Virus record (IMG/VR): IMGVR_UViG_3300021959_007960
Location: 32,001-96,000 of that record
Reading direction: 5' to 3' (one strand)
Length of the DNA: 64,000 nt
Source of the DNA: a virus
In this document: positions 404 through 63,226 of the stretch, one piece after another
Position numbering within the stretch: position 1 is the first letter of the stretch
Layout: each line of letters begins with the position of its first letter
Notes under the pieces: generated by a model
Seen by the model: the letters and a program-made list of their open reading frames with translations, nothing else
What the model was told of the DNA's origin: nothing
Database searches by the model: none
Program-made: the position numbers and the translations under genes

Positions 404-3400
404 ATGGCTAAAGGTTACAATCTTACAGTTCAGCTTAACTTACAAGGCCCTAATAATCTTAGTGGGGTTGTTAATAACATTAATAAAAGACTGAATAATA
501 TTCAGGCTAATGTTAACGTTAAATTACCTACTAGTACTTTAAGACAGATTGCTCAAGTTAATCGCAATTTAAAGCAAACTGGTAAAGATGCAGCTAATGC
601 TGCTAGCGGAATGGAAAAATTCGGTAAGGCTGCTGGTTTAGCTGTTAAGCGTTTTGGTGCATTTACTGCTGCTACTGCTGGTTTTTATGCAATTACTAGG
701 GCTACACAACAGTCTTTAGAGAAATTTGTAGAATTTGATAGACAGGTAACAAGAATTGCTCAGGTTACAAATAGCACAAAACAATCTCTTAATGGTCTTA
801 CCAACGAAATTACAAAACTATCTGTTTCTTTAGGAGCTAGTAGTTCTGAACTGGCTAGTGTTGCTGTTACTTTGAGTCAGGCTGGTCTAAGTGCTAGAGA
901 AACACAAAGAGCATTAAAAGCATTAGCCCTAACTACATTGGCTCCTACGTTCAGCAATTTGAATAATACTGTTGAAGGTAGTATTGCCTTGATGAAACAG
1001 TTTAGTATTAGTACTAGACAATTAGAACAGGCATTAGGTAGTATTAATGCTGTAGCCGGAAGTTTTGCTGTTGAAGCAGGTGACCTGATTACAGCTGTTC
1101 AAAGGGCTGGTGGTGTGTTTGCTTCTGCCAGTAAAGGCGTAGCTACAGGAACAGAAGCTCTGAATCAGTTCTTGGCTGTGTTTACCAGTGTTAGGGCAAC
1201 TACTCGTGAAAGTGCTGAAACAATTGCTACTGGCTTAAGAACTATTTTTACCCGTATTCAAAGAGCAGACACTATTGAGGCATTAAAAGCATTTGGTGTT
1301 ACTCTGACAGACTTAGAAGGTAAATTTATTGGTCCTTTCAGAGCTATAGAACAGTTAAGTAAAGGGTTGAGAACCTTAGATCCTAGATCTCTACAGTTTA
1401 GTGGTATTGTTGAAGAACTTGGTGGATTCCGTCAGGTTGGTAAGGTTATTCCTTTAATCCAAAGATTTTCTACAGCACAACAAGCCCTTAATGTTGCTCA
1501 ACAAGGTTCTGGTTCTTTAGCTAGAGATGCTGCTACAGGTCAACAGGCTTTAGGTGTTCAGATCTCTAAAGTACAACAGCAGTTTGATGCTTTGATTAGA
1601 AGTATAGGACAAACAGGAGAGTTTAGACAATTTATAACTTTAAGTCTTGATCTAGCTAGTGCTTTAATTAAAGTTGCAGATGCTATCAAACCAGTATTGC
1701 CTGCATTGGCTGCTTTGGGAGCTGCTAAAGTAGTAGGAGGCTTAGGAGGTTTAGCTAAAGGCTTTAAAGGAGGACTAGGTTTCAATCAGGGCGGTGTGGT
1801 TCCCGGTAGCGGTAACTTTGACAGCGTTAAAGCTAATCTGACTCCTGGAGAATTTGTAATTAGGAAAAAAGCTGTACAAGCTATTGGTGTCGATAATCTT
1901 TATAGGATGAATAAGTATGCTAAAGGAGGTCCTGTTAAACCTGATTCTCTAGGCAGTTCAGAAATTCGTTCTAGAATTGTTAGAACGGGCAAGGCAGATC
2001 AGTATTTAGCAGGTCAAAGAATTAATGCAGGTGATCGTATTAATTTAGATATAAAAAGTATTCCTTTTGATGGAGGTAAAGTAGGCAATACTGAGTTTGA
2101 AAAAAGAGTTGCAGCTAGTTTGGGAGGAACATGGAAAGGAGGCAATGCCCCTGTTGATGTTATTGCTCCTGGATATGGTCCGATAGAGGTAAGGAACAGA
2201 TCCAGATTTACCCCAGCCTCAGAATTGGCAGATAAACTTGCTAGATATAAAATAGGCACTGTTGGAGACGCTGCATTAAGTAATCAAATGCAAAATGACA
2301 ATATTAATCTTGGTAGAATATATGTTGCATACAATACTGGTAAATTATCGAAACAAGATAAAGAAAAATTAACAGCTAAAGGGAAAGGAATTAAGAAGCT
2401 TTCTGCATTACCTAAAACTAAAAAAGCAGCAGGAGGTGCTATCAGTGGACAAGACACCGTCCCTGCTTTACTTACTCCCGGTGAGTTTGTAATTAATAAA
2501 GGCGCTGCTAGTAGAATAGGATCTTCCAATCTTAAGGCTCTTAATAATGTCGATAAAATCACTGGATATAACAATGGTGGCTTTGTTCAAAGATTCCGTG
2601 GAGGAGGAATGCCAAGTGATCCTGCTTGGAAAAAGAGAGGGTTTAAGATTGGTGGTGGTGGTGGTGGTCGGGAACCTGGAGCACTTGATTTATTTGTAAT
2701 ACAAGGTGGTATATCTGCTTTTAGTGCGGCTATAGGAGATGCTACAAAAGAAACAGCAACTGCTGGAAATGCTTTACAGTCACTAGGCACTGCTGCCTCC
2801 GCAAGTATTGTAGCTTTTCAAGCTTTGAAAACATTTGGTGGAAAGAGAGTGTCAGGTAAAGTTGCTGGACGAGCTGCTCTTGGAATAGGTGCAATTGTTG
2901 CTTTTGATGGAATTATTAAAACTATTTCAAATACTGCTGCTGACTTTGATAAGAAATTAGGTCAAACTAATTTTGACAAAGCTTTAGATACTGCCAGTAA
3001 GTCTTTAGAATTGTTAGCTAAAAACGGAAATGATGCGGCAGCGGCTGCTCAATTACAAGCGCAACTAGCTAGTGCAGTAGATTCTGCAAGAGCCGTAGAT
3101 GCAGCAGCAACAGGTAGCAGAGGTAGTTTACGTCAAGGTATGATGGATATGGTTGCGTATGTTTCTGGCACTGGAGGAGCTGCTGGTATTAGTAGTGGTA
3201 TGGGCGATACGTTTGATGTTGCAGCTAGTAGGGTACGTGCTAATCAAGGGATAACTGGTGCGTTTTTTGAATTCATAGACCCAGAAGGTTTTGCTAAACA
3301 AGTAAATGCTGAGATTGCAGCTACTCAGGATGCATCAGCTAGAAGATATAGTGCTATTTCAGATATGACAATGCAAAGAGGATTGCAACAAGTTGACAGA

Positions 3401-6400
3401 GGAGCTAGTATAGAACAAGTCTCTAGAGGCTTAAACGCTGAACAAAGAGAAGCTATAGCTAGATCTACTGTAGCAGGAGCAAAACGTTTAGATGCTGCAG
3501 GCGGGGCGGGTACAGCAGCTGGTCAGGATATTATTAACCAAGAAGTTACAAAACAACTTAAGCTTACTCTCGGCCCTGCTCTTGCTGATAGAATTGCTAG
3601 AAATGCTAATGCGGCGGCAGCACAATTACAGGTAGCTTTGGAAAGAACATTTAGTAAAATGGATCAGGCGTTTTCAAGAGTTGCAGCTAATATGGATTCT
3701 AATTTCTCCAGAGCTGCATCTACACTCGCTGCTGGATTAGGGAAAACAGGTATTAGATTTGATAATAATCAACAAAAAAGTATATTGGATAATCCTGAAG
3801 CTTATGCATCAAATACTGTTAAAGAAGCTATAGATAGAGTAACTTCTAACTTTGGTCCTAGAGGTAGTAGGGTAGGAGACTTAGCTTTTGCTAGTACTCA
3901 AATTGGAGATAACATAGAAGGTATTGTTAATAGAAGAATTTCAGGAGCTAAACCAGGTGCTGAAGCAGAAACTATTATCAAGGGTGTTGGTGCAGATTTA
4001 ACGAATATGATTAGTGGACTAAACTTAGGCTCTGATATTGAAACAACCATTAATAGACAACTTAAGGAAGCATTTAAAACAGCATCTAAAAATGTAGCAG
4101 GACTTTCTGGAGCAGAAAGAGATGCTGCACTTAAAGAAGAAATTAATAATATTGTTAAAAATCTACCAGCGTTGAATGGAGCTTTAGATGTTGTTAAAAG
4201 AGGTTTTGAAGTTCTTAGTAGTGCTCAAAAACAATATAGTCAAGCTGTTCAACAAATTAGTGAAGCCATCATCCAACGTAATGAATATTTCAATAGAGCT
4301 TCATCTATTAGAAGAGAAGGAGGTGTAGCATTACGAAGAGGATTAGGAGAAAACATTCCTATTACAGACGTTATTAAAAATGTTGCTGCAAGCGTAGCTG
4401 ATCAAACTGGTGGGGTTACTGGTATACAACAATTAGGAGATAATTTAAAAAATCTAATTGCTCGAAGAGAACAAATAGAAGCTAGAAGAGATTCTCTGTC
4501 AGGCACTAATAGTCCAGAGTGGAAAAAGTTAACAGATGAATTAGGCAACATTAATGTAGAAATAGACAAAACAAGAAGTGGCTTAGAAACTTTTGCTAAT
4601 AGTACAGAAATAGCAACAGCTGCATTAAGTGAAATATCACGAATTAGACAAAGAGCAGAAGAACAATCAGCGTTTGGCGAAAGGCTTATAGGATCTACTC
4701 CAAGAGAATTAGGGGATATACAAGGTTTAATATACACTTTGGAAAATGTTGCTAGTGGAGGATCATTAGATTTAAATAATAGCTTTATGGCACAAAGAGC
4801 TTACATGGAAAGCCTAATGAGTGGTGGTAATATTTTTGAAGCTAGACAAGCTGCACAACAAGGATTGGCCAATGAAAGAGGTGGAGTAGTTAGTATTCTT
4901 AAAGAATTGAAACCTTTCTTTGGTGAAGATAATAAAGAATTTAATAAGACGTATGAAACTGTGATGAGATCATTCTTAAGTTCAATTGGAATGATGACTC
5001 CTGCTTTTGAAAAAATGTTTGAAGCAAGAAGAAATGCTACAGACAGACAACAACAACTAATACAGGTTTACCAGAGAGCTACTGACGCACAAGCACGAGC
5101 TAATGAAGCATTAGGACAAACTATTCCTATACAACAAGCTATAGTAGCATCTAATCAGAATTTAGCTGGGGCGATGGTGAACTTAACTAAAGCTATTAAT
5201 GGTATGGCTCAAAGACAAGGATTTGCTAGTGGTGGTGTTGTATATGCTTCTCAGGGTCAATTGGTAAATATGCAACCTAAAGGCACAGATACTGTACCTG
5301 CAATGCTTACTCCTGGAGAGTTTGTTGTTAATGCTCAAGCAACTAAGAAAAATTTAGGATTGCTTCAAGCTATTAATGCAGGCGGCACTGGAAAGACACA
5401 CACTGATGGAGGGGTTCTCTATGCTGAAGGTGGAGTTGGCCCAATCCCTGGGGTACAAGGACGACCGCAACAGGTATTCACGCCAGAACAGTTTTATCAA
5501 TATTATTGGAATCAGAATATGCAAAAGTATGGCACATTTATGCCTAGAATGAATTTAAGGACAGGAAGAATGGAAATGAAAGGGACTATGCCTCTTGCTT
5601 ATCAGCATTTAGCATATTCTCAGGCAGAGGCTGCGTTTTTTCAGCAGGATGCTAGAGGGCGACAACAAGCTAGGCAAGAGCAGCAACAAAAGTATATAAC
5701 TGGCCTTCAAACTTCATATATGGCAGAGCGTAAAGCAGAACTGAAAAAGAGATTCCCAGGTGCTACTGATGCACAAATAAACACTTTTATACAAAATGAA
5801 GCACAAGACCCAGCTAAATTGTATGAATATCAACAAAAGAAAAAACGGGAACATTACCAATACGTACAGGCATACAAAGCAGCTAAGTTTGCTGGCCAAG
5901 AAGTGCCTGACAAAATGTTGAGTCAAAATGAGTATCTACAGCGGGAAGATCCACCTACAGCATCTTCTATAATTGGTAAAGCTAAGGGTCGTCCCGAAAC
6001 AAGAGGGGCTGGTGGTATGTTTGCTGGATTTGACATGACGAATGTAAAATCTGGTCGTCCTGGTGCATCTCGTGATTCCGACGCAGCACAAAAAAGACAT
6101 GATGAAAAATATTTATACAAACACAGAGATCCTGCAACTGGACAACTTAAATTTACTAGAGGTAATATAGTTGGAACAGATAGTAATGGTAATTTACAAA
6201 TAGCTACAATTGATAGAGATGGTAATCTTACTGGAAATACTGCAACAGTTCAGTATGATAATTTAACTCCTACAGCTAAAACAAAGGCTGCTGGTAAATT
6301 AACTACATCATTAATTGGTGGAGCAGGATCGGCTGCTATTTCTGGAACTAGTGGTGCTTCAGAATTTATATCAGGAGTAATAGATACTGCTGAGGGGGTA

Positions 6401-9049
6401 GGAACTTCAATAATATCTGCATATGAACAACAAAAATTAGAAAGAAAAAAAAGAAGAGAACGCAGAGAGGCGTTGTTTGCTCAAGGTAAGCAAATAGGAA
6501 GCAACATTGTAGGAGCAGTAAAAGACACTGTTTCTACTGCGACTAATCTTGTAGGAGAAGCCTCAAATCTTGTAACAAAAGGAATTGAGTCTTTAGCTTA
6601 CCATAGTCTACCTGCAACTAATGTGACAGGTAAGAGATATGGTAATGATTATGATCCAGCTCAAATTGCTGCCATAAACAGAATGCAAAACAGACCAACT
6701 GATGCTGCTGGTAATACTGCTCGTGTTGAAACTTTTAGAAATACTCATCCTGGTTTAAATGCTAGTAAATATACTAATTTTATAGAAGATGTAAGAGCAG
6801 CTGAAAGTGCTACTAAAGCTGATCTTGAAAAGTTTGGTTCTGATTCAATGACTATGAATTATGGCAAAGGATATAGTATTACACGATACAAAGACGGTAG
6901 AGTAGAAGTAAATGTTCCTACAGCACAACAAGTAGAACAGGCTACCAGTGGTTATTCTACTAATGTTAGAAGTGGAGCGTTTTATGATTATGGTAGTGAT
7001 ACTCCTGATTTGGTAAATCCACTAGTACCAACGTTAGGTATGCCTGGTGCTGTTGGTTCTACGGCTATGGATGCTTCACTTTTTGAACGAATGGGCTATG
7101 CTCAGACATTACTACAAGCATTTGCTGGTTCTCCCGGAGCGAAACCTAGTATGGCAAAAGGCAAGCCGGTAACTCCTCCGTTAAAATCAGTGCCTCTTAC
7201 CAGTAGAATTAGAACAAAGACATTTAGACCTAACGCTCCAGGGACAAGTCAAATTGATGTAGGTGGGGGTAATATGGCAAGAGGTGTACCTCAGCGGCAA
7301 GCTACACTAGCTAGACAGCAAGCTTTTTCTAGAGGACCAGCAGCTCAGAAGATGTACAATCAGTTAAGAGATAATGGCATGCCTCATGACCAAGCTGTTA
7401 TGACAATGCAAAGTCAAGGATTTAATCCTAAGAGTCGTGCTACTGAAGCTAAGTTAATGGAAAACTATGGTTTTGAAGGATTGAAAACACCGACAGCTCA
7501 AAAACCACGTGTAAAACTTCCAGTCTCTCAGTCAGGTCAGTCAGGAGCATCATCATCGGTAGACTTTACCAATGTTCGTGGTGGTCGTCCACAAGGAACA
7601 CAAATCAGCGAATCAGCTGCTATGAGACAAGCCAGACTCGTAGGAGATCCTAGAGGAACAGCAGGTAGCGGATACGGCATGAGACAGACTTTAACAACTT
7701 CTCCAATGTCTAGAAGCGGTTCAGCATCTGAGTCAGCAGCGCGAGAATTGTTTTTGAAATATGGTATAGGTTCCTTGCCAGGTGGTTCAACATCTGTGGC
7801 AGCTAAACCTACAACAGCAGCTAAACCTACAACAGCAGCTAAACCTACAACAGCAGCTAAACCTACAACAGCAGCTAAACCTACAACAGCAGCTAAACCT
7901 GCAAAAACTAGACCACAAATGAAATCATTTGCAGAAGAACGAATGGAGAATTTTGAAAAATTTAGCAAGGACCCTACTTTTACATTATCTGCAGTTCGAA
8001 AAAAATATGGAAGCAGCCAGAAAAAGTCAGAACGTGAGTTTTTAGCTCAGTATGAAAAAATGCCTCGTGTTTTAGATGCGTTTAGAACTTATGGAGCAGA
8101 GAATTACGGTAGATTCCGGTCTGCCTCGAAGAGACCAGAAGCACAGTCTTTCGACAAAGCGTTCACACAGTTTGCACGCGAACAGATACTTAAAGGAGGA
8201 GCTCCTAGAACCGAGAGTGGAGATTATGCTGGAACGGGATATCGAATTGATTCGGGTATTGCGCGTGTGTATGGTCCAGACTCTGCTGGTCGAGGTCGAG
8301 CAATTTTATATGAGATCCCTATGGGTAAAGTAAAAAATCCAGCTAATTTAGAAAAACTATTTAAGACGCAAGGCATTCAGAGATTTGCTTCTGGAGGTAT
8401 TGTTGGAAATTACTTTAACACAGGAGGTCTTGCTAAAGGAACAGATACAGTACCAGCCATGCTTACTCCGGGAGAATTTGTAGTTAACAGAGAAGCTACT
8501 CAAAAAAATAGGGGCTTATTAAGCTCCATAAATAATGGTGTTACATATGCTAACGAGGGAGGAATAATTGGTAATGGAGGAGGCAATGGTGGTGGTATGG
8601 ATTTTTCGGGCTTTATAACCGCTGCTAATACACTAACCCCAAATCTTGCTCTTTTTGCTGAGGCTGCCACAGCATTCTCTAATATAGAATTTGGTGTATT
8701 AAGTGATGTAGGCACTCAATTTCAAGGAGCTTCTAATGCTTTTGGATTAGCTGCTAGGAATTTTGGTGCTCCAGTAACTAAATTTGATAATTCTATTGGC
8801 ATGTTTGTAAATCAAACAAATCAACTTATAGCAGCTATTAGCAATATGGGACAAATACAAGGAACAGTTAATGTGGTAGGAACTATAGCTTTTGCTCCTA
8901 TAGAAGTTAATGTTCTTGGTTTAGACCAGATAGCTGGTTTGATAGGAGGTATTGAAAATAGCGTATTGGCACAAGTTGGTGCGGCACTATCACAAGACAA
9001 TCCAGGTATTTCTGTAAACACTTTAAGCTCAGGTGGATCACTAGCATAA
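404..9049 (+). CDS. Phage tail tape measure protein (TP901-like core) with long modular C-terminal extension
   Basis: 2881 aa. Ala/Gly/Gln-rich helical N-terminus with TMP core (ESAETIATGLRTIFTRI, GVTLTDLEGKF). Four GG..DTVPAMLTPGEFV-type motifs. Starts the tail gene block. Confidence 0.9.
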   Translation: MAKGYNLTVQLNLQGPNNLSGVVNNINKRLNNIQANVNVKLPTSTLRQIAQVNRNLKQTGKDAANAASGMEKFGKAAGLAVKRFGAFTAATAGFYAITRATQQSLEKFVEFDRQVTRIAQVTNSTKQSLNGLTNEITKLSVSLGASSSELASVAVTLSQAGLSARETQRALKALALTTLAPTFSNLNNTVEGSIALMKQFSISTRQLEQALGSINAVAGSFAVEAGDLITAVQRAGGVFASASKGVATGTEALNQFLAVFTSVRATTRESAETIATGLRTIFTRIQRADTIEALKAFGVTLTDLEGKFIGPFRAIEQLSKGLRTLDPRSLQFSGIVEELGGFRQVGKVIPLIQRFSTAQQALNVAQQGSGSLARDAATGQQALGVQISKVQQQFDALIRSIGQTGEFRQFITLSLDLASALIKVADAIKPVLPALAALGAAKVVGGLGGLAKGFKGGLGFNQGGVVPGSGNFDSVKANLTPGEFVIRKKAVQAIGVDNLYRMNKYAKGGPVKPDSLGSSEIRSRIVRTGKADQYLAGQRINAGDRINLDIKSIPFDGGKVGNTEFEKRVAASLGGTWKGGNAPVDVIAPGYGPIEVRNRSRFTPASELADKLARYKIGTVGDAALSNQMQNDNINLGRIYVAYNTGKLSKQDKEKLTAKGKGIKKLSALPKTKKAAGGAISGQDTVPALLTPGEFVINKGAASRIGSSNLKALNNVDKITGYNNGGFVQRFRGGGMPSDPAWKKRGFKIGGGGGGREPGALDLFVIQGGISAFSAAIGDATKETATAGNALQSLGTAASASIVAFQALKTFGGKRVSGKVAGRAALGIGAIVAFDGIIKTISNTAADFDKKLGQTNFDKALDTASKSLELLAKNGNDAAAAAQLQAQLASAVDSARAVDAAATGSRGSLRQGMMDMVAYVSGTGGAAGISSGMGDTFDVAASRVRANQGITGAFFEFIDPEGFAKQVNAEIAATQDASARRYSAISDMTMQRGLQQVDRGASIEQVSRGLNAEQREAIARSTVAGAKRLDAAGGAGTAAGQDIINQEVTKQLKLTLGPALADRIARNANAAAAQLQVALERTFSKMDQAFSRVAANMDSNFSRAASTLAAGLGKTGIRFDNNQQKSILDNPEAYASNTVKEAIDRVTSNFGPRGSRVGDLAFASTQIGDNIEGIVNRRISGAKPGAEAETIIKGVGADLTNMISGLNLGSDIETTINRQLKEAFKTASKNVAGLSGAERDAALKEEINNIVKNLPALNGALDVVKRGFEVLSSAQKQYSQAVQQISEAIIQRNEYFNRASSIRREGGVALRRGLGENIPITDVIKNVAASVADQTGGVTGIQQLGDNLKNLIARREQIEARRDSLSGTNSPEWKKLTDELGNINVEIDKTRSGLETFANSTEIATAALSEISRIRQRAEEQSAFGERLIGSTPRELGDIQGLIYTLENVASGGSLDLNNSFMAQRAYMESLMSGGNIFEARQAAQQGLANERGGVVSILKELKPFFGEDNKEFNKTYETVMRSFLSSIGMMTPAFEKMFEARRNATDRQQQLIQVYQRATDAQARANEALGQTIPIQQAIVASNQNLAGAMVNLTKAINGMAQRQGFASGGVVYASQGQLVNMQPKGTDTVPAMLTPGEFVVNAQATKKNLGLLQAINAGGTGKTHTDGGVLYAEGGVGPIPGVQGRPQQVFTPEQFYQYYWNQNMQKYGTFMPRMNLRTGRMEMKGTMPLAYQHLAYSQAEAAFFQQDARGRQQARQEQQQKYITGLQTSYMAERKAELKKRFPGATDAQINTFIQNEAQDPAKLYEYQQKKKREHYQYVQAYKAAKFAGQEVPDKMLSQNEYLQREDPPTASSIIGKAKGRPETRGAGGMFAGFDMTNVKSGRPGASRDSDAAQKRHDEKYLYKHRDPATGQLKFTRGNIVGTDSNGNLQIATIDRDGNLTGNTATVQYDNLTPTAKTKAAGKLTTSLIGGAGSAAISGTSGASEFISGVIDTAEGVGTSIISAYEQQKLERKKRRERREALFAQGKQIGSNIVGAVKDTVSTATNLVGEASNLVTKGIESLAYHSLPATNVTGKRYGNDYDPAQIAAINRMQNRPTDAAGNTARVETFRNTHPGLNASKYTNFIEDVRAAESATKADLEKFGSDSMTMNYGKGYSITRYKDGRVEVNVPTAQQVEQATSGYSTNVRSGAFYDYGSDTPDLVNPLVPTLGMPGAVGSTAMDASLFERMGYAQTLLQAFAGSPGAKPSMAKGKPVTPPLKSVPLTSRIRTKTFRPNAPGTSQIDVGGGNMARGVPQRQATLARQQAFSRGPAAQKMYNQLRDNGMPHDQAVMTMQSQGFNPKSRATEAKLMENYGFEGLKTPTAQKPRVKLPVSQSGQSGASSSVDFTNVRGGRPQGTQISESAAMRQARLVGDPRGTAGSGYGMRQTLTTSPMSRSGSASESAARELFLKYGIGSLPGGSTSVAAKPTTAAKPTTAAKPTTAAKPTTAAKPTTAAKPAKTRPQMKSFAEERMENFEKFSKDPTFTLSAVRKKYGSSQKKSEREFLAQYEKMPRVLDAFRTYGAENYGRFRSASKRPEAQSFDKAFTQFAREQILKGGAPRTESGDYAGTGYRIDSGIARVYGPDSAGRGRAILYEIPMGKVKNPANLEKLFKTQGIQRFASGGIVGNYFNTGGLAKGTDTVPAMLTPGEFVVNREATQKNRGLLSSINNGVTYANEGGIIGNGGGNGGGMDFSGFITAANTLTPNLALFAEAATAFSNIEFGVLSDVGTQFQGASNAFGLAARNFGAPVTKFDNSIGMFVNQTNQLIAAISNMGQIQGTVNVVGTIAFAPIEVNVLGLDQIAGLIGGIENSVLAQVGAALSQDNPGISVNTLSSGGSLA
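7799..7900 (+). repeat. Perfect 18-bp in-frame tandem repeat (gcagctaaacctacaaca x5 plus 12 bp) encoding AAKPTT
   Basis: Read directly from sequence. Confidence 0.97.
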
Positions 9050-9070: not shown

Positions 9071-12000
9071 ATGGCTAATAAATTTTATAATTACAGAGTT
9101 AGAGCAGCACAAACAGCAGCTGCTAACCCTATGCCGCAAGGAGGTACTGGATATTTAGACTTTACCAATACGGGAAGTTATAACCAGTTTGACTCTGTGG
9201 TTAATATCTCTGCTGGCTCGGAAGAAAGATTTGTATATAGAATTACAGCTGCCAGTGAAGCTAGTAAGTATGAATATGGTATAGGATATATTACAAGTGT
9301 TTCTAGCGACTTAAGGCTTACAAGAGAAAAAACATATAGTTCTAGTCAATCTGATAACTCTAGAGTAGCATGGGCCACGGTCGATGGAGCCTTAACTTTA
9401 GACATGATGGTTCCTAACCCTAATTATGTTAGTCGTAAAAGACTTAGTTTCGGAACCTCTGCAACACACAACATACCTAATCTTACCACAACATATCTGT
9501 TAACTGCTTCAGGTAATATGACTTTAAATTTGCCACTAATTGAGAGTAATACAGATTCTGTAGCAATTGACCTAATGATTACTGATTTAAGCGGCAGTCA
9601 GAACTCAAGATCTAATGCAGTTACGCTAGATGCTAGTGGATCAAATACTATTAATAGTACAGGAACGTATGTCCTGACCAAAAAGAATGATCTTGTTAAA
9701 CTTATTTCTGATACTGATAATACTAATTGGATAGTACTAGATCCTGAAAATGATACTGCTGGGTCAGATGGATCAGACGGTGCTGTACAACTTGCTAGTG
9801 GTGGCTCTTTAAGTAGTGATACAGGTTTATTTTTCAAAGATAATGCTTTGTTTATAGGGGGTTCTGGAACATCTGATGCTTCTATACAACTAACAGAATC
9901 AAATGGCGCTACTTTCAACCTACAAAGCGGATCAATAGATTTTGCCGTACATTCTAATGGGGCTGCTAATACTCTGTTTGTTGATGGTTCTACTAACAGG
10001 GTAGGTTTAAGAACAAATTCTCCATTAGATATTTTACATGTAAACACTACAGGTGTTGGTGGAATTATGGTTAGCAATACTGGATCTGGTGGTGTTCCAG
10101 TTGCTACATTCAAAAATAGTGATACTAATTCTACTGATGGCACTGATGTAGGTAGAATAGATTTTATTGGAATAGACAGTGCTTCTAATGATACAACATA
10201 TGTAAGAATTTTAGCAGAAGTAGCTGATGAAACTAATGCCTCAGAAGAAGGACAGTTAGACTTTTTAGTTAACCATAATGGGACCTTGCAACCCGTTGCT
10301 AAATTAACATATGACGATTTAAATATAGGTACTAATAATAGTGTTTCAGGAGGGTTAGTAGTTGGAAGTAGTAATACTAATAAGGGTGAAAATGTAGTTA
10401 TAGGTTTTTCCAATACTAATTGTGGAAATACTAGTATTGCTGTAGGTCATTCTAATACTATTACTAGTGGTAGTTATGGCGGTGCTTTTGGTAAAAATCA
10501 CACTGTAACAGGATCTCATATGTGGTTGTTCGGAGGTTCTGGATTTGATGTTACAGGGAATAACACAACATATTTGGTAGGCAATAGTAATAATTATATT
10601 AAAGTAAAACATGATGATCAAGAAAGAATATGTATTTATGTAGATACTACAGGTACAGATTTTAATATTATTAATAGTAGGGTTTCAACCACAGGTGTTG
10701 AACATAAACAAAATTTTGTATTTAATAATAGTGATGGGGTTTCTAAAACTGGCGTATCTTATGGTATTGAGGTTACCAATCCTGCTAGTGGATCTGAAAG
10801 TACTAAATTCTTTATCCAAACTTTAGAGACCGGTGTGTTAACAGATGTTTTAAGGGTTAGCCCTAATAATGTTAATATTTCTAATGTCTCTGGTTTTGAT
10901 AATTCTGTATTAGTTGGTAATAGTTTAACTATTACTGGAACAGGCAATAATACTGTTGTGGTAGGTATGTCTAATACATTGACCGCTAATAGTGGTAATA
11001 ATGTAGTAGTAGGATATAATAATGAGCTTAGTGCTTCGGGCAATAATAATACGGCCTTATTGGGTAATTCTAATACTGTAGATGAAAATTATACTAGTAC
11101 TGTTGGAACTTCTAATAGAAATAGTGGACTTTATTCTGCTGTTATAGGTTATAATAATGGTATCTATGGAGAAAACATTGGAGCCGTTGGAGTTAATAAT
11201 TCTGTATCTGGTAATAACTCTAGTGTTCTGGGTTATAACAACAATATAGATCATAATAGTGTTTATGTTGTTGGTCAAGGTAATACAGCAGCTTATTCTG
11301 GTGTTACTCTTATAGGTAACAATATTACTGCAACAGGTAGTAATCATACTATTATTAAAAATGATGTTGTTATTATTACGGGAACTACTGTAAGGTTTGA
11401 TGCTAATGTTGAAATTGGAAATAATACAGCAATAAGTAGTGGTGATAATATTAGTGTTCTTACAAATGACGCTGGATATATTACTGGAGAAGCATATGTT
11501 ACTGGTATTACTTATACTACAGGATTAACTTCTGGTCTTCTTGTGCTGTCTCATCACAGTGGCACAACCACAGGCGTATTAACAAACGTAATGCATTCTG
11601 GCACAAAGATTAGTTTTCTTACTAATGATAGTAATTATGTGGCTAGCGGATCTAATGTTAGTCAGCTAACTAATGACTCAAACTATATTGATTCTAGTGG
11701 TTTTGCCGTACCGAAACTAACCTTTACAGTAACTTATGATGGCTTAAATAATAGATATACTGTAAGTGGTGCTGGTACAACAGGTCAAATCAATCCTGAT
11801 TTGTATTTGCACAGAGGAGTCTCTTATGACTTTAAGCATGTTGGTGCAGCTGGTGGAATAACCATAATGACAGGAGCTGGAGGTTTGGGTAATTATGCGC
11901 CTTATAATTTGGGCGTTACAAACAATACTGGCGAAATAGGGGGAACTACTTCGTGGACAGTAAGACATGATACTCCTATTGTTCATGATAGTGGTACAGG

Positions 12001-12100
12001 TCTGTGGAATGTCCCTTCTGCTGCAAATAGTGTTTACATTACTGGTAGATACTTAAATTCAGGTACTCCATCTCAAGGTGGTAATATATTTGTTGTCTAG
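9071..12100 (+). CDS. Tail fibre / receptor-binding protein with YadA-head-like beta-roll repeats
   Basis: N-terminal virion-attachment-like segment (YEYGIGY..LTRE..SSS). About 14-residue N-x-x-V-V-G-x-x-N repeats. Thr/Gly/Asn/Ser-rich. Repeated ISxLTND motifs. Confidence 0.75.
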   Translation: MANKFYNYRVRAAQTAAANPMPQGGTGYLDFTNTGSYNQFDSVVNISAGSEERFVYRITAASEASKYEYGIGYITSVSSDLRLTREKTYSSSQSDNSRVAWATVDGALTLDMMVPNPNYVSRKRLSFGTSATHNIPNLTTTYLLTASGNMTLNLPLIESNTDSVAIDLMITDLSGSQNSRSNAVTLDASGSNTINSTGTYVLTKKNDLVKLISDTDNTNWIVLDPENDTAGSDGSDGAVQLASGGSLSSDTGLFFKDNALFIGGSGTSDASIQLTESNGATFNLQSGSIDFAVHSNGAANTLFVDGSTNRVGLRTNSPLDILHVNTTGVGGIMVSNTGSGGVPVATFKNSDTNSTDGTDVGRIDFIGIDSASNDTTYVRILAEVADETNASEEGQLDFLVNHNGTLQPVAKLTYDDLNIGTNNSVSGGLVVGSSNTNKGENVVIGFSNTNCGNTSIAVGHSNTITSGSYGGAFGKNHTVTGSHMWLFGGSGFDVTGNNTTYLVGNSNNYIKVKHDDQERICIYVDTTGTDFNIINSRVSTTGVEHKQNFVFNNSDGVSKTGVSYGIEVTNPASGSESTKFFIQTLETGVLTDVLRVSPNNVNISNVSGFDNSVLVGNSLTITGTGNNTVVVGMSNTLTANSGNNVVVGYNNELSASGNNNTALLGNSNTVDENYTSTVGTSNRNSGLYSAVIGYNNGIYGENIGAVGVNNSVSGNNSSVLGYNNNIDHNSVYVVGQGNTAAYSGVTLIGNNITATGSNHTIIKNDVVIITGTTVRFDANVEIGNNTAISSGDNISVLTNDAGYITGEAYVTGITYTTGLTSGLLVLSHHSGTTTGVLTNVMHSGTKISFLTNDSNYVASGSNVSQLTNDSNYIDSSGFAVPKLTFTVTYDGLNNRYTVSGAGTTGQINPDLYLHRGVSYDFKHVGAAGGITIMTGAGGLGNYAPYNLGVTNNTGEIGGTTSWTVRHDTPIVHDSGTGLWNVPSAANSVYITGRYLNSGTPSQGGNIFVV

Positions 12101-12112
12101 AAGGAATTTTAA

Positions 12113-13495
12113 ATGGCTGTTACAGCACAGGGATTAACTTTATACAGACCTACTGCTTCAGTACAAAGAGAATATAGTTATGATTCTGATGGAGAAACTA
12201 TCGGGGTCACAGACAATGTAACTATTCATGATACTGTGCTGTCTGAAGATGCAGATTTAGTACAGACAGCAGATCAGATTATCGCATATGTCAAAGAAGG
12301 TAGTAATAACTTTAGATCTTTAGTATATGGTGCAAATACAGCACAGGGTAGAGTTGCGAGCATTTCTTTTGATTCTAGTTCAGACTATACCAACGTATTG
12401 AAATATTCAATTACTTTTAAAGTCGTTCCTATTAACGCTAGTTTAATATCTAGTTGGAATTTTTCTCCTAGTGATGGTGTTACAGATTTAAGCTATAGAG
12501 AAAGCCTTGATATTCCAAAAGACATAAATTTGATTAGCTTGCAATCAGGAGGAAGTTATTGGAATAATTATAACACATATACTTTTGAAGCATCTGTATC
12601 ATGTCAACAAGTAAATAGTAACACTAATTCGCAAGACCTAGCAAAAGCAGCTTTAAACCAAATCAAAGCTATTATTCCTGACAGGATAGCAAAACTTATA
12701 GATACAGAAGGAACAAAAAATTATCTTAATATTTCAGAAAATTCATCTAAAGAAGGCACTGCTAGCATAAATATTTCTGCTGCGATTGTACCGGATGGAT
12801 CAAGTAGTGGTACTACTATTATTAGTAGTGAAGAACAGGGAATAGAAAAGATTAATACTCCACAAGAATATGAAAAACTTACTTACAAAGTAACATTTAA
12901 AACATTAGAAAATATGAGTATTGATCCTCTTGGTGGTATTGCTGTTGAAAGTACAAGAAGTGCGGCTGAAAGTCTAGCTCAAGGAGTAGTGAATTATTAT
13001 AATGGACCTCTTACGCCCTCTAGTACTCCTCCTGGAAAAACTATTGTTTGTGTAACAGCTTTGCCTAAGCTACCTGCGGGCAGTTGTTTTAATGTTACAT
13101 CAGCAGGTGTAGATGTTGATCATGCTGGAAAAACTGCTACAGCCGTTATAGAATCTAGTACAGAACCTCAAAATTGTGATGGAGATGGATATAAAGTAGA
13201 ACATAGAACTAATCATATAAAAAATAAAAAATTACATGTTGAATTATTTGGATGGGGTGTTCCAAACACTATTGTTCAAGACCTTCAAAGTAAATCAGCA
13301 GATGTTAAAGAGTATAATGTTCAAGTAAGTAGTGCGTCCAAATGCTTAACAAGTGAGCTTAAAACAAAAGCAGAAACTAAATTTAATGAGATTAAAGATG
13401 GTAGTGGTACTATTATTAAACATAATATAGTAGTTAGTAATGGTAGATGCACCATTACTGCGACAGAATTTTTAGGACAACCAGATACATTATAA
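12113..13495 (+). CDS. Putative virion tail/baseplate protein (paralog A)
   Basis: 460 aa, beta-rich, RBS aagga, tail operon context, shares a Cys pattern with the next gene. Confidence 0.55.
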   Translation: MAVTAQGLTLYRPTASVQREYSYDSDGETIGVTDNVTIHDTVLSEDADLVQTADQIIAYVKEGSNNFRSLVYGANTAQGRVASISFDSSSDYTNVLKYSITFKVVPINASLISSWNFSPSDGVTDLSYRESLDIPKDINLISLQSGGSYWNNYNTYTFEASVSCQQVNSNTNSQDLAKAALNQIKAIIPDRIAKLIDTEGTKNYLNISENSSKEGTASINISAAIVPDGSSSGTTIISSEEQGIEKINTPQEYEKLTYKVTFKTLENMSIDPLGGIAVESTRSAAESLAQGVVNYYNGPLTPSSTPPGKTIVCVTALPKLPAGSCFNVTSAGVDVDHAGKTATAVIESSTEPQNCDGDGYKVEHRTNHIKNKKLHVELFGWGVPNTIVQDLQSKSADVKEYNVQVSSASKCLTSELKTKAETKFNEIKDGSGTIIKHNIVVSNGRCTITATEFLGQPDTL

Positions 13496-13507
13496 GGAGA
13501 AAATGTT

Positions 13508-14854
13508 ATGCTATCTATTGGTATTGGATTAAAACCCGCACCTGACTTTAATATTGAACCAGAATTTTTCTATGCTGGTCAAGACGTTATTGGTGGTGTT
13601 ATAAAGTTAACATTAAGTGGTACTCATTATGCAGACAGTGTGACTACATATGAAACTATGAGCGATACTATTCTTTCTCTTAATGGTGTTTGTCGTACCC
13701 TACAAAGCTTAGGCACTTGTGGAGGAACTTTAGGTGAGTTAGTAGGAAGTGTAGGTTTTATAGAGTCTGCTTCAACATCTGATACTGATTCTCCTTTAAA
13801 TCTTGGGTATACTATTGTTATGGTTTTTACTCATAGCAGTAGTGGTCGAACTCCTTTTATAGAGCCAAGTAGTGCTTATACAGGTATGCAAGGCAATTTA
13901 ATATTAACTAATTATTCTAAATCAGAATCTTTAGACGCAAGTTCTTTATCTACTTTTGTTTTTCAAAGCAGCGGTAAATTATTGGCTACTCAAGGAGAAT
14001 ATAATGTAGAATGTTCTGTTGGTGTTTATGCTAGTGATAGGTGTGATAGTGGTGGTGCAACAAACAAAAAACAAAATATCAAGACATTTTTAGATTCTCA
14101 AACAGGTTTCGATAGAAATTTTAAGATTCCAAGTGGATTTACTAGATTTTTAATTAATGAGAAAGTTTCTATTGGTGAAAATGGTGGTTCTATAAGTAAA
14201 AAATATATTATAGCTCCCTCTAACAGTGTTGCTGTAGTAACGCTTAATAGATCTAACAGGACAGATCAGATTACCGGTATAGCTAAATTAAATATTCAAG
14301 GAAATATTACAGGATTAAGATCTTTTGCTGATGCTCAAACGGTGTATAGTAAAATATCTAATATTGACAGTGTAGCTACACAGGATTTATTAAGTAGTAC
14401 TTGTGGAGATAACACCCCTTTACCTTTGGATTTATGTAGAATACTATCGTCTTCAAAAAGAATAGACAATCAAGCTCAAAGAAGTATTGCTTTTGATTTT
14501 ACTTATTCTGATGTAGAAAAGTGTGTGGCTCAAGGATATCAAATTGTTACAGAATATTCAGAAAATAAAGATGTTCATAAAATTGCAGAATATCTTGTTC
14601 CAGGAAAAATTGATTCTATTGTTTTTAAAAGTGCTGGTAAAACAGCTAGGAAAATGAAATTAAAAGTTACTGGAAGAATTACAAGTTGTAACGAAGATTT
14701 TGTAAGTACGGTTGAGGGTGGAGTAAGAACAGAGTTTAACACACAAAAAAATGATTTAGGGTTACTTGGTGGTAACGTAATTAGAATATCAGAAGGTGAA
14801 GAAACGGGCAGATATAGTTTTAGCAAAACAGAGGAATATATAGAGTGTGCATGA
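13508..14854 (+). CDS. Putative virion tail/baseplate protein (paralog B)
   Basis: 448 aa, RBS aaggag, C-terminal half aligns by eye with 12113..13495. Confidence 0.55.
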   Translation: MLSIGIGLKPAPDFNIEPEFFYAGQDVIGGVIKLTLSGTHYADSVTTYETMSDTILSLNGVCRTLQSLGTCGGTLGELVGSVGFIESASTSDTDSPLNLGYTIVMVFTHSSSGRTPFIEPSSAYTGMQGNLILTNYSKSESLDASSLSTFVFQSSGKLLATQGEYNVECSVGVYASDRCDSGGATNKKQNIKTFLDSQTGFDRNFKIPSGFTRFLINEKVSIGENGGSISKKYIIAPSNSVAVVTLNRSNRTDQITGIAKLNIQGNITGLRSFADAQTVYSKISNIDSVATQDLLSSTCGDNTPLPLDLCRILSSSKRIDNQAQRSIAFDFTYSDVEKCVAQGYQIVTEYSENKDVHKIAEYLVPGKIDSIVFKSAGKTARKMKLKVTGRITSCNEDFVSTVEGGVRTEFNTQKNDLGLLGGNVIRISEGEETGRYSFSKTEEYIECA

Positions 14855-21749: not shown

Positions 21750-21760
21750 GGAAATATATT

Positions 21761-24700: not shown

Positions 24701-25573
24701 AGTCAGGTATTGGATTTAGATAATGCAAAACAGGATTTCAATAATGTAAGGGCTGGTGCTTTAAGAGGCCCTTTAATGTTAACTTCATGGGGTTATGATC
24801 TTGATGGTAAACCTGTGCCTGGTGATGGTAGTGATAGTTTTACTACAGGATGGATGAGTAATCCTAAAAGTTGGCCTACTGGCCCTATTGATTTGAGATG
24901 GGATGACAAAAGAGGTGTATGGACAATACCTGCCGGAGAAAAAATCGTAGCAGCTCAATTAATTCAGCCATTATCAGCAGGGGGTTCAGCTAAAGCTGTT
25001 CTTATTGGTGGTTATGGAGAAGATGTTCCTTCTTCTCAAAGTCCATTAGGTTGTGGACAATTAGCTGGTGGTGGTGGTGGGAGCTATGGTACAATTACTG
25101 TATATGATGTAGTTAATAGACCTTGTAATATAGGTACTAGAATTACTGCTGTACATAGTGGTGAAGGCAAATATCTGCCTTTAGGTTATATTGATACTTA
25201 TAAGAAAAAAGAGTTTGATGGTTGTGGTGACACCGTGCCTGTTGCAGATGAGTGTACTCAATTAGGTTTATGGAGTACGCCTAAGAAATATACTGTACAA
25301 GGACTTGATGAATTTGCTAATCCTGTACTACATGATCTTGAAGAAATATTTAAGTACCCCGATCTACCCGAACAAAGCATGGGAGAAGATATGGTACTAG
25401 GCTTTAGTAAAACAAACGAAATGGGGCAACCTTGTATGAAGGCATTTCCTATTGTGACTTGTAGTGGAACATATCCGGATGATGGTAGTGGCCCAACTAC
25501 GCCGCTGCCTTGTCCTCCTGGGTATATAAGAAGTCCTACTGGATCTGGACGTTGTGTGCGTACGGATCTTTAA
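21761..25573 (+). CDS. Putative baseplate hub / tail tip protein
   Basis: 1270 aa, last gene of the tail operon. Hub-like segments (FNFGGIIKS, SILDLANSVCDEAGFDF). Function inferred. Confidence 0.5.
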   Translation: MPCQSVTANYSLVYAGTNNSVFGPDATDRILGFTSNIGLGSESSTLSFTLAGKAGTNAFGVSPAENVGRAVIFTCNSFNFGGIIKSLSNSEDGGGNTTKVTLTCAKEMLANGDIMLNKNVVGFDSVRAWQSQYGTTFVRTSIADVNGANVHAITERASVPVNLRNENVNGTNATARPQAGDCSKYGLSNQNRVAHGNSTYSAILGSLYSNGFKIKTVGGSDTLFVDFTPITRLANGIPYASTSAYKMSILDLANSVCDEAGFDFHCTIEGQWIKFKLIDKRVETTFGSVQNIVNTAKNSDKCISSSIGAEFKGVKTARFITGHHINYIKEAYIGGNAKGALVGQIYNQRPLYSYTSDFNMRFDTSKLSQALIQNGFSGVGGTHAVQEREFIACGNLDTWKLWGIENPNSLSRSCLNACQLPVTRAVSFLRNQGSAHYVARSAVEAVKSLGIKSPGAMVYEEVCYSYFKNLYETYYGQYYLVVLNGGTTCFQDPTGYVSNTGIFLGEGGAATLMDTPIDSGWPDNERQVIGNTTLAPFFDNAGKLTCFVGIPMGDTLGKGLYNTTFDPTLMNAEYIVENGTLYTKAQVDGRAYNIGGELGILIKMPSIISHRPVLSGGINSFGLRAISLCLGRGLFGFSNSGGTLDTSYANIFKENVAAGRFTKIAIPMKNNQLVYGPWRGGAYGARNGGGVDIQVREDLNPWQYGSYSNMDYAGQNYASHGIPWRTRYESGHVTIAESPAESLGEKNVGEALLASVVVKFDKSGSTTTYNYETYKPKFGNAAENFNTFIKKNIADRRDNYNILKENYHEIIRNHNSAMRVAGQIRERLFRQQIENNAGANAHSQSQIMTLSYPDPFQGQLFDCKTEVGLTKAYDSSIFQDQDNYAKYAAVGLDMFFAPVSTAATFAMGYMSPKNLPDEPGNNSSPLSMPPFEGGMTPKKHLAIDNFRLNPFSTRANINSYFSGRGSSFGFQTDYCTYGAISQVLDLDNAKQDFNNVRAGALRGPLMLTSWGYDLDGKPVPGDGSDSFTTGWMSNPKSWPTGPIDLRWDDKRGVWTIPAGEKIVAAQLIQPLSAGGSAKAVLIGGYGEDVPSSQSPLGCGQLAGGGGGSYGTITVYDVVNRPCNIGTRITAVHSGEGKYLPLGYIDTYKKKEFDGCGDTVPVADECTQLGLWSTPKKYTVQGLDEFANPVLHDLEEIFKYPDLPEQSMGEDMVLGFSKTNEMGQPCMKAFPIVTCSGTYPDDGSGPTTPLPCPPGYIRSPTGSGRCVRTDL

Positions 25574-62111: not shown

Positions 62112-62156
62112 AATTAAAAGTCCTATCTAAATTGTCAAAAACAAACGTGCTCAAAG

Positions 62157-63222: not shown

Positions 63223-63226
63223 GTTA

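Follow-up and report, generated by a model that had tools for sequence, protein, structure and literature searches.

Evidence for exchange of inserts bounded by a repeated joint in a very long phage tape measure protein

Described tape measure systems and the window protein

Tape measure proteins (TMPs) are usually given a passive part, first as rulers and afterwards as a lining of the DNA channel. Published accounts of phage lambda report that its TMP, gpH, leaves the tail and forms a trans-envelope channel. During tail maturation it is cut in a Gly-rich region into gpH* and the C-terminal fragment gpHC, and according to these accounts the site and the protease went without assignment for forty years. 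A hydrophobic stretch of gpH was placed at aa 691–712 (PMC12617516). The T5 protein pb2 is reported to be cut into pb2* and pb2C after R1127; the cut separates a hydrophobic stretch from a peptidase motif, and the enzymatic C-terminal part stays in the tip. Mycobacteriophage TMPs (TM4 gp17 with its mt3 motif, Fionnbharth gp22 of cluster K, Douge gp16) contain a non-ruler domain in the form of an embedded cell-wall motif. In TM4 gp17 mt3 is described as dispensable, its deletion being viable and shortening the tail. Sle1 of Streptomyces lividans is reported as a TMP-like scaffold whose functional domains can be exchanged and which undergoes packaging and ejection (PMC13277306). Small PD-(D/E)xK-type domains present as divergent alleles behind a conserved junction are found in the T6SS VRR-Nuc effectors such as TseV, in CdiA-CT and in Rhs toxins. 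Literature titles were searched for TMPs as cargo, polyproteins or effector carriers, or with a nuclease, and none was relevant.

The protein studied here is encoded by an uncultured marine phage as a single ORF at 404..9049 on the plus strand of the 64-kb stretch of DNA analysed (the window). It has 2881 aa, with the stop codon at 9047–9049. Pfam PF10145 (PhageMin_Tail) matches aa 135–328 (E 7.9e-21, 75.3 bits against a curated cut-off of 33.2) and NCBIfam TIGR01760 matches aa 94–447 (E 1.5e-26, 93.2 bits against 28.8). PHROG TMP families match the ORF as well. The initial annotation of this DNA, which had called the ORF a TMP from its letters, is thus borne out. A 99%-identical protein, P0049, is known from other contigs. 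Five ORFs of 1009, 460, 448, 2300 and 1270 aa come next on the plus strand; their order is kept in the relative L001, and none has a match in PHROGs, Pfam or NCBIfam. Megablast of the TMP gene against 50,697 phage records gave no match. The N-terminal 510 aa gave nothing in tblastn at 1e-10 and, at 1e-3, only 21–25% matches to SPbeta-like, Lactococcus 949-like and Enterocloster phages. By these searches, therefore, the window TMP has no cultured relative.

The window TMP carries two inserts, further referred to as segA and segB, and four copies of a conserved element of ~60–75 aa, further referred to as the joint. As in lambda gpH, a hydrophobic stretch and a Gly-rich run precede the joint, here joint 1; unlike the window TMP, gpH is 853 aa long, carries one joint and lacks inserts, and its cleavage is established. 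The mycobacteriophage proteins share with the window TMP the non-ruler domain within a TMP, but their joints number only one or two and their insert is of the wall-hydrolase, not the nuclease-like, kind; insert exchange between relatives is not described in the portions of the mycobacteriophage literature available to us. T5 pb2 has no significant match to the joint (E 0.27). SegA may be a small domain of the same type as those of TseV, CdiA-CT and Rhs, likewise carried by a delivery scaffold; in contrast to them, its carrier is a virion ruler and its position is internal and fixed, not a C-terminal tip. Sle1 is likewise a modular TMP-like scaffold, although it belongs to an intracellular phage-tail-like particle, a contractile injection system and not a phage.

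The joint and its family

The consensus of the joint is [FY]AxGG, G-x-D-T-V-P-A-M-L-T-P-G-E-F-V-[VI]-N-x2-A...L-x2-[ILM]-N, then [FY]xxGG. The N-terminal TMP core (aa 1–454, 404..1765) ends with a hydrophobic region at aa 410–451 in the hydropathy scan. Joint 1 (aa 455–512, 1766..1939, FNQGG..NFDSVKANLTPGEFVIRKKAVQAIGVDNLYRMNKYAKGG) separates it from segA (aa 513–667, 1940..2404). Joint 2 (aa 668–740, 2405..2623, KKAAGG..GQDTVPALLTPGEFVINKGAASRIGSSNLKALNN..YNNGGFVQRFRGGG) is followed by the middle backbone (aa 741–1603, 2624..5212), which has hydrophobic segments at its start (aa 759–778 and 820–842). SegB (aa 1681–2657, 5444..8374) lies between joint 3 (aa 1604–1680, 5213..5443, FASGG..GTDTVPAMLTPGEFVVNAQATKKNLGLLQAIN..YAEGG) and joint 4 (aa 2658–2722, 8375..8569, FASGG..FNTGG..GTDTVPAMLTPGEFVVNREATQKNRGLLSSINN..YANEGG). 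The remainder is a Gly-rich and hydrophobic C-terminal tail (aa 2723–2881, 8570..9046). All these parts are on the plus strand.

The N-terminal core is 95% identical to that of L001 and 98–100% identical to those of P0152 and P0153, and this block is common to 134 of the 153 top relatives. Identity of the middle backbone equals 50–75% to P0002, 45–50% to P0123 and 24–30% to many giant relatives. The C-terminal tail, 75–95% identical to that of P0002, is one of several conserved C-terminal families and has 33 members. By analogy with the lambda, T5 and Douge structures it is presumed to bind the tail tip.

The profile used for scoring was made from the four copies of L001 alone. Joints 1–4 of the window TMP score 72.8, 92.3, 74.7 and 73.5 bits, the best score over 200 shuffles of the protein being 5.3 bits, and no match outside these four copies was found in the six frames of the window. 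PGEFV occurs once per joint, at aa 481, 692, 1637 and 2689. The motif [FYW]xxGG is observed 9 times against 2.2 expected (none of 2000 shuffles reached 9), with 8 of the 9 falling in the 273 joint residues. The four module copies and the [FY]xxGG-like motifs reported initially were all recovered, the copies at coordinates inside the joint ranges and in agreement with the profile and the shuffles. The likeness of copies 3 and 4 at the DNA level held in part: they are 81% identical over 77 nt, but their longest exact run is only 11 nt.

The joint has no Pfam or NCBIfam model, and text searches of the literature returned no paper naming this sequence. Phmmer of joint 3 against the PDB gave no match. 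The joint profile, applied to all PDB sequences, matched proteins of lambda, Douge and JBD30. In lambda gpH there is one joint at aa 727–785 of 853 (E 6.9e-8 as a single target, 1.3e-6 against all PDB), and in JBD30 it is found at aa 1014–1068 of 1158. By profile comparison the joint is homologous to this single element of gpH. Fionnbharth gp22 has it at aa 872–942 of 1391 (E 6e-10), Douge gp16 has two copies (aa 962–1033 and 1410–1470 of 1699), and the 3404-aa TMP of Nodularia phage 2AV2 also has two, at aa 1001–1113. Hence the suggestion that the motif usually stands near TMP C-termini fits gpH and JBD30 but not the latter three proteins. Two joints are also present in Gordonia phages. In Fionnbharth gp22 the joint is followed at once by ..YKWGGTNWGDCSG.., by eye a motif of the mt3 or cysteine-peptidase type; Pfam confirmed no hydrolase family there.

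In total, the joint profile matches 22,508 cluster representatives at E<=1e-3, of which a limit of E<=1e-30 leaves 1,124. The best 150 joint-bearing representatives are 935–7872 aa long, with 3–12 matched stretches each. Complete relatives include L029 (2296 aa), with three joints and lacking the segB slot, and L015 (3429 aa), with six. Cassette families take different ordinal positions in different joint-bearing proteins. In 153 re-scanned proteins, having 3–10 joints each, the number of joints grows with protein length (r 0.70). This growth is what one would expect if the inserts merely provided length or spacers for a very long tail and the joints were structural, keeping the chain in register, touching the tube or hub, or forming membrane hairpins in the channel after ejection; no effector would then be delivered, and variation would reflect selection on tail length or channel properties. 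We consider this doubtful. Cultured phage 2AV2 is consistent with it, pairing its two-joint TMP with a tail reported to be 795 nm long (PMC6293099, Table 1), so that giant TMPs go with giant tails. The shortening of the TM4 tail upon removal of the embedded motif is also as predicted. Moreover, none of the 25 giant relatives scanned contains a known enzyme family above Pfam cut-offs; besides PhageMin_Tail, the sole family above the cut-off was EF-hand_5, in one protein. Visual inspection suggested HAD-like motifs in certain cassettes of P0042 and P0075, which were rejected as non-significant: the 12 PDB profile matches, mostly HAD-type phosphatases, have E 0.27–2.4, and Pfam at E<=1 gave only noise for both stretches.

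Mosaicism at the joints

Comparison of the window TMP (P0001) with P0002 gives a mosaic profile. Identity is ~95% over aa 1–500, falls to 13–39% per 50-column block in segA (aa ~510–660, about 28%), returns to 38–78% per block, mostly 50–75%, at aa 662–1650, drops to unalignable noise in segB and reaches 60–96% at the C-terminus. P0152 and P0153 are 98–100% identical to the window TMP over the first ~500–510 aa and ~90% or more identical after joint 2, whereas their segA is only 16–17% identical. P0123 shares segA with the window (78%) and segB with P0002. The initial annotation had proposed aligning TMPs of related phages, expecting variable inter-module segments and conserved modules; the identity profiles of relatives agree with this, the joints and the backbone being conserved and the segments between joints varying.

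The breakpoints are sharp at the nucleotide level. Just past YAKGGPV, identity falls from 59/60 to 35/60 and then 17/48, and it is back at KKAAGG. It is at this KKAAGG of joint 2 that identity to L001, P0152 and P0153 restarts. Identity to P0002 stops after YAEGG of joint 3 and restarts at GGIV of joint 4. Exact runs between orthologous joints of different phages are 26–53 nt long; among the four joint copies within one gene they are 8–12 nt long. Identity steps lie within 25 aa of a joint edge in 44 of 67 cases against 9.6 expected, a statistic that is inflated because joints are islands of conservation and the pairs are not independent. The other 23 steps are away from joints, for instance near aa 1047–1067 in P0153.

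Phylogenetic trees of the flank and the insert are incongruent. In the N-terminal tree P0001, P0049, P0152, P0153 and P0002 form one tight clade (support 99/96), whereas in the segA tree P0152 and P0153 group with L014, L010 and L029 (100/99), apart from P0001. Taken without recombination, these patterns would have to arise from conserved islands, the joints, between segments that diverged fast in place. The joints do exceed their surroundings in conservation, and this alone yields identity steps at their edges. Rapid divergence in place is nevertheless scarcely credible given the near-identical flanks of the dissimilar segA in P0152 and P0153, the strongly supported conflict between the trees, and the grouping of P0123 with the window in segA and with P0002 in segB. 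Exchange of inserts between related phages, with breakpoints at joint edges, is well supported by these sequence comparisons, and the earlier proposal that the repeats act as recombination points accords with the mosaic identity, the breakpoints and the trees. Polymorphic toxin and effector delivery systems likewise swap variable modules between strains at a conserved junction. They also place a cognate immunity gene beside each toxin module, which a virion-borne protein of a lytic phage need not have. Recognisable toxin or enzyme families, a feature of polymorphic toxins and effectors, were not found by Pfam in segA, segB or the 25 relatives.

The inserts and their fate

The AlphaFold2 (AF2) model of segA is an alpha/beta domain with pLDDT >90 over model residues ~57–210. 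Its conserved motif is E...D...ExK/R, the window copy having an invariant K and, as a point against the nuclease assignment, ExR (EVRNR) in place of ExK. In 16 aligned segA sequences D, FE, D, E and K are invariant. Across 48 homologues the first E is present in 47, D in 48 and E/D in 48; at +2, 34 homologues have K and 14 have R, and the later K is kept in all 48. The segA of L001 is of the K type. These columns were tentatively matched to the catalytic positions of solved nucleases by spacing and secondary structure. Structural comparison with VIA-align gave PD-(D/E)xK nucleases as the best, weak matches (Z<=4.8, all values being below 5 and thus under the trust level of the tool): the VRR-Nuc domain of FAN1 at 4.8, Hjc at 4.5, 4.0 and 3.9, NhoI at 3.9 and FokI at 3.5. 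Among the 50 neighbours listed most, including the top nine, are such nucleases, and CdiA-CT and VRR-Nuc chains are among the weak neighbours. Foldseek of the model against PDB and BFVD gave nothing at E<=1e-3, short BFVD matches being joints of other viral proteins. There was no Pfam match (only noise at E<=1) and no NCBIfam match. In the ESM Atlas segA scored at most 0.78; an Mrr_cat_2 cluster, ranked 20th (0.76), is treated as a lead only. Together, the motif and the weak structural likeness of the model suggest that segA is a folded, PD-(D/E)xK nuclease-like domain.

Of the 35 representatives having a segA-type domain, 34 carry it immediately behind joint 1, which weakens the reading of this slot as a free payload slot. 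Within the part of the family that has it, segA keeps its place while its alleles diverge strongly, with 16–29% identity between them. Both the conservation of an active site-like motif in a compact alpha/beta domain despite such divergence and the allele lengths (155 against ~190 aa), by which a swap hardly alters the length of the TMP, argue against the inserts being a matter of tail length only.

SegB is a clade-specific insert of 977 aa, basic (net charge +50) and of low complexity, with homologues found only in P0049, P0152 and P0153. Pfam searches at E<=1 gave only noise for segB in four pieces and for the inserts of L001, and ESM Atlas returned no usable match for segB. Its AF2 model, built from a 4-row alignment, has mean pLDDT 37.8 and is uninformative on order versus disorder; at this low confidence it consists mostly of helices and unstructured stretches. 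The proposal that the segments between modules are not helical and hold folded domains was accordingly upheld for the one between copies 1 and 2, where segA is confidently alpha/beta, but not for that between copies 3 and 4, where long helices and unstructured stretches are modelled and no domain is recognisable. A tandem 18-nt repeat encoding (AAKPTT)n, family D1 in the repeat search, occupies 7781..7922 on the plus strand; its copy number varies, P0049 being 24 aa shorter at this place. SegB tolerates indels, and a variant with a ~200-aa deletion exists. Such composition, repeat variation and tolerance of deletion are in line with a ruler or spacer role for segB. In sequencing run X8 a contig links nt 7767 directly to nt 8381, where joint 4 has its first codons, and a contig of this run carries 91 other letters in place of nt 5382–5468, at joint 3. 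Gene stretches without contig cover in runs X6–X8 (e.g., segA in X6) were not counted as evidence. Small-sided contig junctions (1449>2471, 1347>2471 and others with a side <30) were set aside as conserved pieces of other organisms.

Lambda gpH has, in order, the hydrophobic stretch, Gly-rich GGAVGGGASASGG and the joint ..FATGG..RGEFVFTKEATSRIGVGNLYRLMRGYATGG; the GG pairs of this joint stand in FATGG and YATGG, and it has the GEFV core. The window TMP shows the same type of arrangement: the hydrophobic region at aa 410–451, GGLGGLAKGFKGGLGFNQGG and joint 1. Release of effectors from the TMP by cutting was inferred from the start; what supports it is the analogy with lambda gpH. In such a polyprotein injector the cut at [FY]AxGG would be made by a protease, of the phage or of the host, or else by the joint, and would free the nuclease-like domain and segB in the tail or in the host. 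The only joint of lambda opens the C-terminal fragment that is released, beside the Gly-rich region within which the cut is placed. The T5 cut FVPR|AEGG can be placed on the C-terminal [FY]AxGG of the joint, but the alignment is that of the non-significant profile match. GG pairs rank with the most conserved parts of the joint (93% at profile positions 61–62 in 769 joints); they would suit a hinge equally well. None of the tail genes was recognised as coding for a protease, and a cut at joint 1 or 2 would part the N-terminal TMP core from the ruler. We regard the polyprotein injector as unlikely. Cleavage at one or more joints, by the same analogy, is a real though minor possibility and is not needed for our main account.

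A bolder version, quite unlikely in our view, would make the giant TMPs of aquatic phages programmable polyprotein injectors in which the joint is a double-glycine processing element and up to a dozen cassettes are packed in the tail tube, cut apart and delivered to the host ahead of the DNA. If it were true, the cassettes would include nuclease-like, possibly phosphatase-like and many unknown-fold families, and host defences would drive an arms race in which the phages shuffle them at the joints.

The account that we prefer, and hold to be slightly better than an even bet, is that of a real, very long TMP made of a conserved backbone and joint-bounded, exchanged inserts that are delivered with it, segA acting on nucleic acid. 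The backbone would comprise the N-terminal core, the long middle part and the tip-binding C-terminus, with a joint at each insert boundary. The joints may be flexible Gly-hinged linkers tolerating foreign sequence on either side; this hinge reading rests on absence of order, namely the low AF2 confidence of the joints (pLDDT 42–67) and their reported lack of resolution in the lambda and Douge structures. They would also supply co-infecting relatives with nucleotide homology. Because the joints would thereby permit in-register recombination, the inserts could move as cassettes and intragenic deletion would be avoided. The whole protein, including the inserts, is expected to be loaded in the tail tube and, when the phage infects, to pass into the host envelope as part of the ejected TMP. 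There the nuclease-like domain may act on host DNA or RNA or on a defence target at entry, or it may hold the phage DNA end. SegB would be an extension, basic and for the most part non-globular, by which the ruler is lengthened as well. Against the loading of inserts stands a packing problem, as three to six folded ~12-kDa domains would have to fit in a tail-tube lumen of ~4 nm.

The joint marks insert exchange points in thousands of long TMPs. As it adjoins the maturation cut of gpH, it provides a concrete handle on TMP processing in lambda itself. The joints also give a rule for placing foreign domains in a TMP, which may be used in phage engineering. Finally, the joint-bounded cassettes form a catalogue of candidate virion-delivered proteins, the first of them being the nuclease-like domain, which is conserved and evolves through replacement of alleles.

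The tape measure gene and its repeated joint

The tape measure protein (TMP) is encoded by a single ORF of 2881 aa (404–9049, plus strand). It is identified as a TMP by agreeing profile matches in Pfam (PF10145, aa 135–328, E 7.9e-21), NCBIfam (TIGR01760, aa 94–447) and PHROG, where several TMP families were matched; the PHROG family phrog_35029, of unknown function, matched four separate stretches of the protein. The gene lies in a large phage genome of the lytic type, and the window also encodes a split DNA polymerase, primase, helicase, ribonucleotide reductase, PhoH, dCMP deaminase and a ClpP-like protease. Among 50,697 phage records no DNA-level relative of the TMP gene was found, and the TMP core gave protein matches of 21–25% only. 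The gene was seen on contigs of marine, estuary, seawater and sponge metagenomes.

Five large ORFs of 1009, 460, 448, 2300 and 1270 aa follow on the same strand (9071–25573) and presumably encode tail tip and fibre proteins. Except for a weak cadherin match in the 2300-aa ORF, they had no match in PHROG, Pfam or NCBIfam; the first three stand in the same order in L001, the record that encodes the relative TMP P0002. On the minus strand, a 129-aa protein (58349–58738) matches PF18454 (Mtd_N, E 2.5e-14), the N-terminal domain of the Bordetella-phage major tropism determinant, and near the window end (60470–63282, minus strand) genes for a ClpP-type protease (PF00574), a sigma-factor-like protein and a PAP2 phosphatase are clustered.

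The initial annotation had claimed four copies of a module in this protein. They were borne out as profile matches at aa 455–512, 668–740, 1604–1680 and 2658–2722 (joints 1–4, all on the plus strand), which score 73–92 bits with a profile built from the four copies of one relative alone, against at most 5.3 bits for shuffled TMP sequences. No further joint was found in the 64-kb window with this profile. The pattern [FYW]xxGG occurs nine times in the TMP versus 2.2 expected (none of 2000 shuffles reached nine), eight times inside the joints. The likeness claimed for copies 3 and 4 at the DNA level holds in so far as they are 81% alike across 77 nt, but the longest identical run between any two joints of the window does not exceed 12 bases. 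In a contig of sequencing run X8 (depth 111) that matches the TMP gene on both flanks, 85 bases at 5382–5468, the variable tail of joint 3, are replaced by 91 other letters.

The consensus of 769 joints from 153 proteins is GG[VI][VI]-Y-A-A-x-G-G-x-V-x-G-T-D-T-V-P-A-M-L-T-P-G-E-F-V-[VI]-N ... L-x2-I-N ... [YF]-x2-G-G-x-V. Conservation is 89–100% at each of the GG pairs and of the residues D, P, A, L, G, E, V and N, figures that are biased to the consensus because these joints are the top scorers of a family-built profile. In the AF2 model the joints have pLDDT of 42–67 and contain a short helix pair only; the joint is visible in no structure.

Exchange of inserts between related phages

The TMP was compared with five relatives sharing its backbone (P0049, P0002, P0152, P0153 and P0123). 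As had been proposed, the segments between the modules vary while the modules are conserved: P0152 and P0153 are 98–100% identical to the window TMP over aa 1–500, yet only 16–17% identical in segA, the insert between joints 1 and 2 (aa 513–667). From joint 2 on, P0152 is again about 90% identical, including segB, the insert between joints 3 and 4 (aa 1681–2657). P0153 is 45% identical over aa 748–1067, then 100% over aa 1068–1667, and lacks about 200 aa at the end of segB. P0002 is about 95% identical over aa 1–500 and 60–96% at the end, with 13–39% per 50-column block in segA (about 28%) and 38–78%, mostly 50–75%, over aa 662–1650; its segB (about 575 vs 977 aa) cannot be aligned. P0123 has the segA of the window TMP (78%) and the segB of P0002.

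Trees, from which L005 and L006 were omitted as near-duplicates of L001, agree with this pattern. A tree built on the 400 aa preceding joint 1 places P0001 (the window TMP), P0049, P0152, P0153 and P0002 together in a single tight clade (99/96), whereas in the segA tree P0152 and P0153 group with L014, L010 and L029 (100/99), far from P0001.

Codon-wise nucleotide identity to L001 falls from 59/60 to 35/60 and 17/48 right after YAKGGPV, recovers at KKAAGG, is lost again beyond YAEGG and recovers from GGIV in joint 4. Between the window and L001, orthologous joints have exact runs of 53, 34, 26 and 35 nt in common. In ten pairwise comparisons, 44 of 67 identity steps are no more than 25 aa from the edge of a joint versus 9.6 expected, an excess that partly follows from the joints being islands of conservation; the remaining 23 lie away from the edges and speak against exchange at joints. 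A contig of depth 120 from an independent seawater run (matched at 90% likeness, reported 'side' 27, with 485 and 348 letters on the two sides) fuses nt 7767 directly to the opening codons of joint 4 (nt 8381), which is the deletion of P0153. These alignments and trees show that inserts have been exchanged among related phages at joint edges.

Other complete relatives have three joints and no segB slot (L029, 2296 aa) or six joints (L015, 3429 aa). A tandem repeat (AAKPTT)n with an 18-nt unit lies at 7781–7922, inside segB. P0049 is 99% identical to the window TMP and lacks 24 aa exactly at this repeat, so its copy number varies among near-identical phages. In the metagenome contig L007 (1473–6395) the TMP frame ends after 1640 aa with two joints only, 300 nt before the contig end; a frameshift or an assembly error could explain this, or the gene may really be split.

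The two inserts

Folded domains had been expected between the modules, and segA agrees with this: AF2 predicts an alpha/beta domain at aa ~511–664 with pLDDT above 90. In an alignment of the unit from joint 1 to joint 2 (16 sequences) D, F-E, D, E and K are invariant. The domain profile matched 48 of 182 TMPs. Among the 153 representatives it matched 35, and 34 of them have the domain directly after the first joint. Across the 48 homologues the motif consists of E (47/48), D (48/48), E/D (48/48) and a later K (48/48), with K (34) or R (14, as in the window) at the +2 position. VIA-align against 48,161 chains placed PD-(D/E)xK nucleases in most of the 50 listed rows, the top nine included (FAN1 VRR-Nuc, Z 4.8; Hjc, 4.5, 4.0 and 3.9; AF1548, 4.1; NhoI, 3.9; FokI, 3.5), all Z values being under the level of trust advised for the tool. 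Foldseek gave no significant match for the model. Because of these sub-threshold values and the empty Foldseek search we term segA nuclease-like, without assigning it to the superfamily. The models and alignments show a predicted folded nuclease-like domain of fixed position with divergent alleles. Hydrophobic stretches flank the unit (aa 410–451 before joint 1; 759–778 and 820–842 after joint 2).

In two other TMPs, P0042 and P0075, the cassette following the nuclease-like domain has DxDxT, (S/T)ARP and DD motifs and by eye resembles a HAD-type phosphatase. It had no Pfam match, and a two-sequence profile against PDB returned mostly HAD phosphatases, at E 0.27–2.4 only.

For segB (977 aa, net charge +50) the AF2 model, built from four nearly identical rows (mean pLDDT 37.8), is uninformative: long helices, a few hairpins and long unstructured runs. 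Homologues were found in P0049, P0152 and P0153 only, and conservation of 74–98% among them marks segB as real coding sequence. Family and Atlas searches gave no match, and neither these nor AF2 gave a sign of an enzyme.

The joint in other tape measure proteins and its possible role

An eight-copy profile searched against 1.84 billion proteins found 22,508 joint-bearing cluster representatives at E≤1e-3 and 1,124 at E≤1e-30. The best 150 of the 22,508 have 935–7872 aa and 3–12 matched stretches. A local rescan of 153 proteins gave 3–10 joints per protein, a number that correlates with protein length (r 0.70). An N-terminal core is common to 134 of the 153, and most also end in one of a few C-terminal families. 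Their 616 internal segments (median 818 aa) fall into many families, with 151 singletons, and some families differ in ordinal position from protein to protein. No joint model exists in Pfam or NCBIfam, and a text search with joint core strings and 'tape measure', figures being outside its reach, found no paper.

In cultured phages the joint occurs in annotated TMPs of Mycobacterium, Gordonia, Nodularia, Brevundimonas, Burkholderia, Ralstonia and other phages; a few matches are genes labelled 'hypothetical protein' or unannotated records. Among the matches listed, Nodularia phages and many Gordonia phages have it at two places per record. Douge gp16 has two joints, and its structure models the last 42 residues only. 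Fionnbharth gp22 has one joint immediately followed by the stretch YKWGGTNWGDCSG, which by eye looks like the mt3-type wall-hydrolase motif of the TM4 paper; Pfam did not confirm this motif.

Lambda gpH has a single joint (aa 727–785; E 6.9e-8 as a single target, 1.3e-6 among all PDB sequences), immediately C-terminal to GGAVGGGASASGG. These profile matches show the window joints to be, as judged from sequence, homologous to the lambda element. The T5 protein pb2 is cleaved after R1127, at a site that has a hydrophobic stretch on one side and a peptidase motif on the other (PMC10038345), and the alignment of the joint profile to this region was non-significant (E 0.27).

In Nodularia phage 2AV2 two joints stand about 40 aa apart (aa 1001–1113), one third along the TMP, and look like an empty cassette slot. 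This phage combines a 3404-aa TMP with a 795-nm tail (PMC6293099), and an enzyme family scored above the cut-off in none of 25 giant relatives scanned. Both facts favor the alternative that inserts serve as a tail-length ruler with no effector delivery, which we nevertheless consider unlikely.

We favor a reading in which inserts are delivered. The joints would be Gly-hinged linkers that tolerate inserts and would also provide homology between phages. By analogy with lambda as a precedent, proteolytic cleavage at the joints is possible. The inserts would be carried in and leave with the TMP, and segA would act on nucleic acid at entry.
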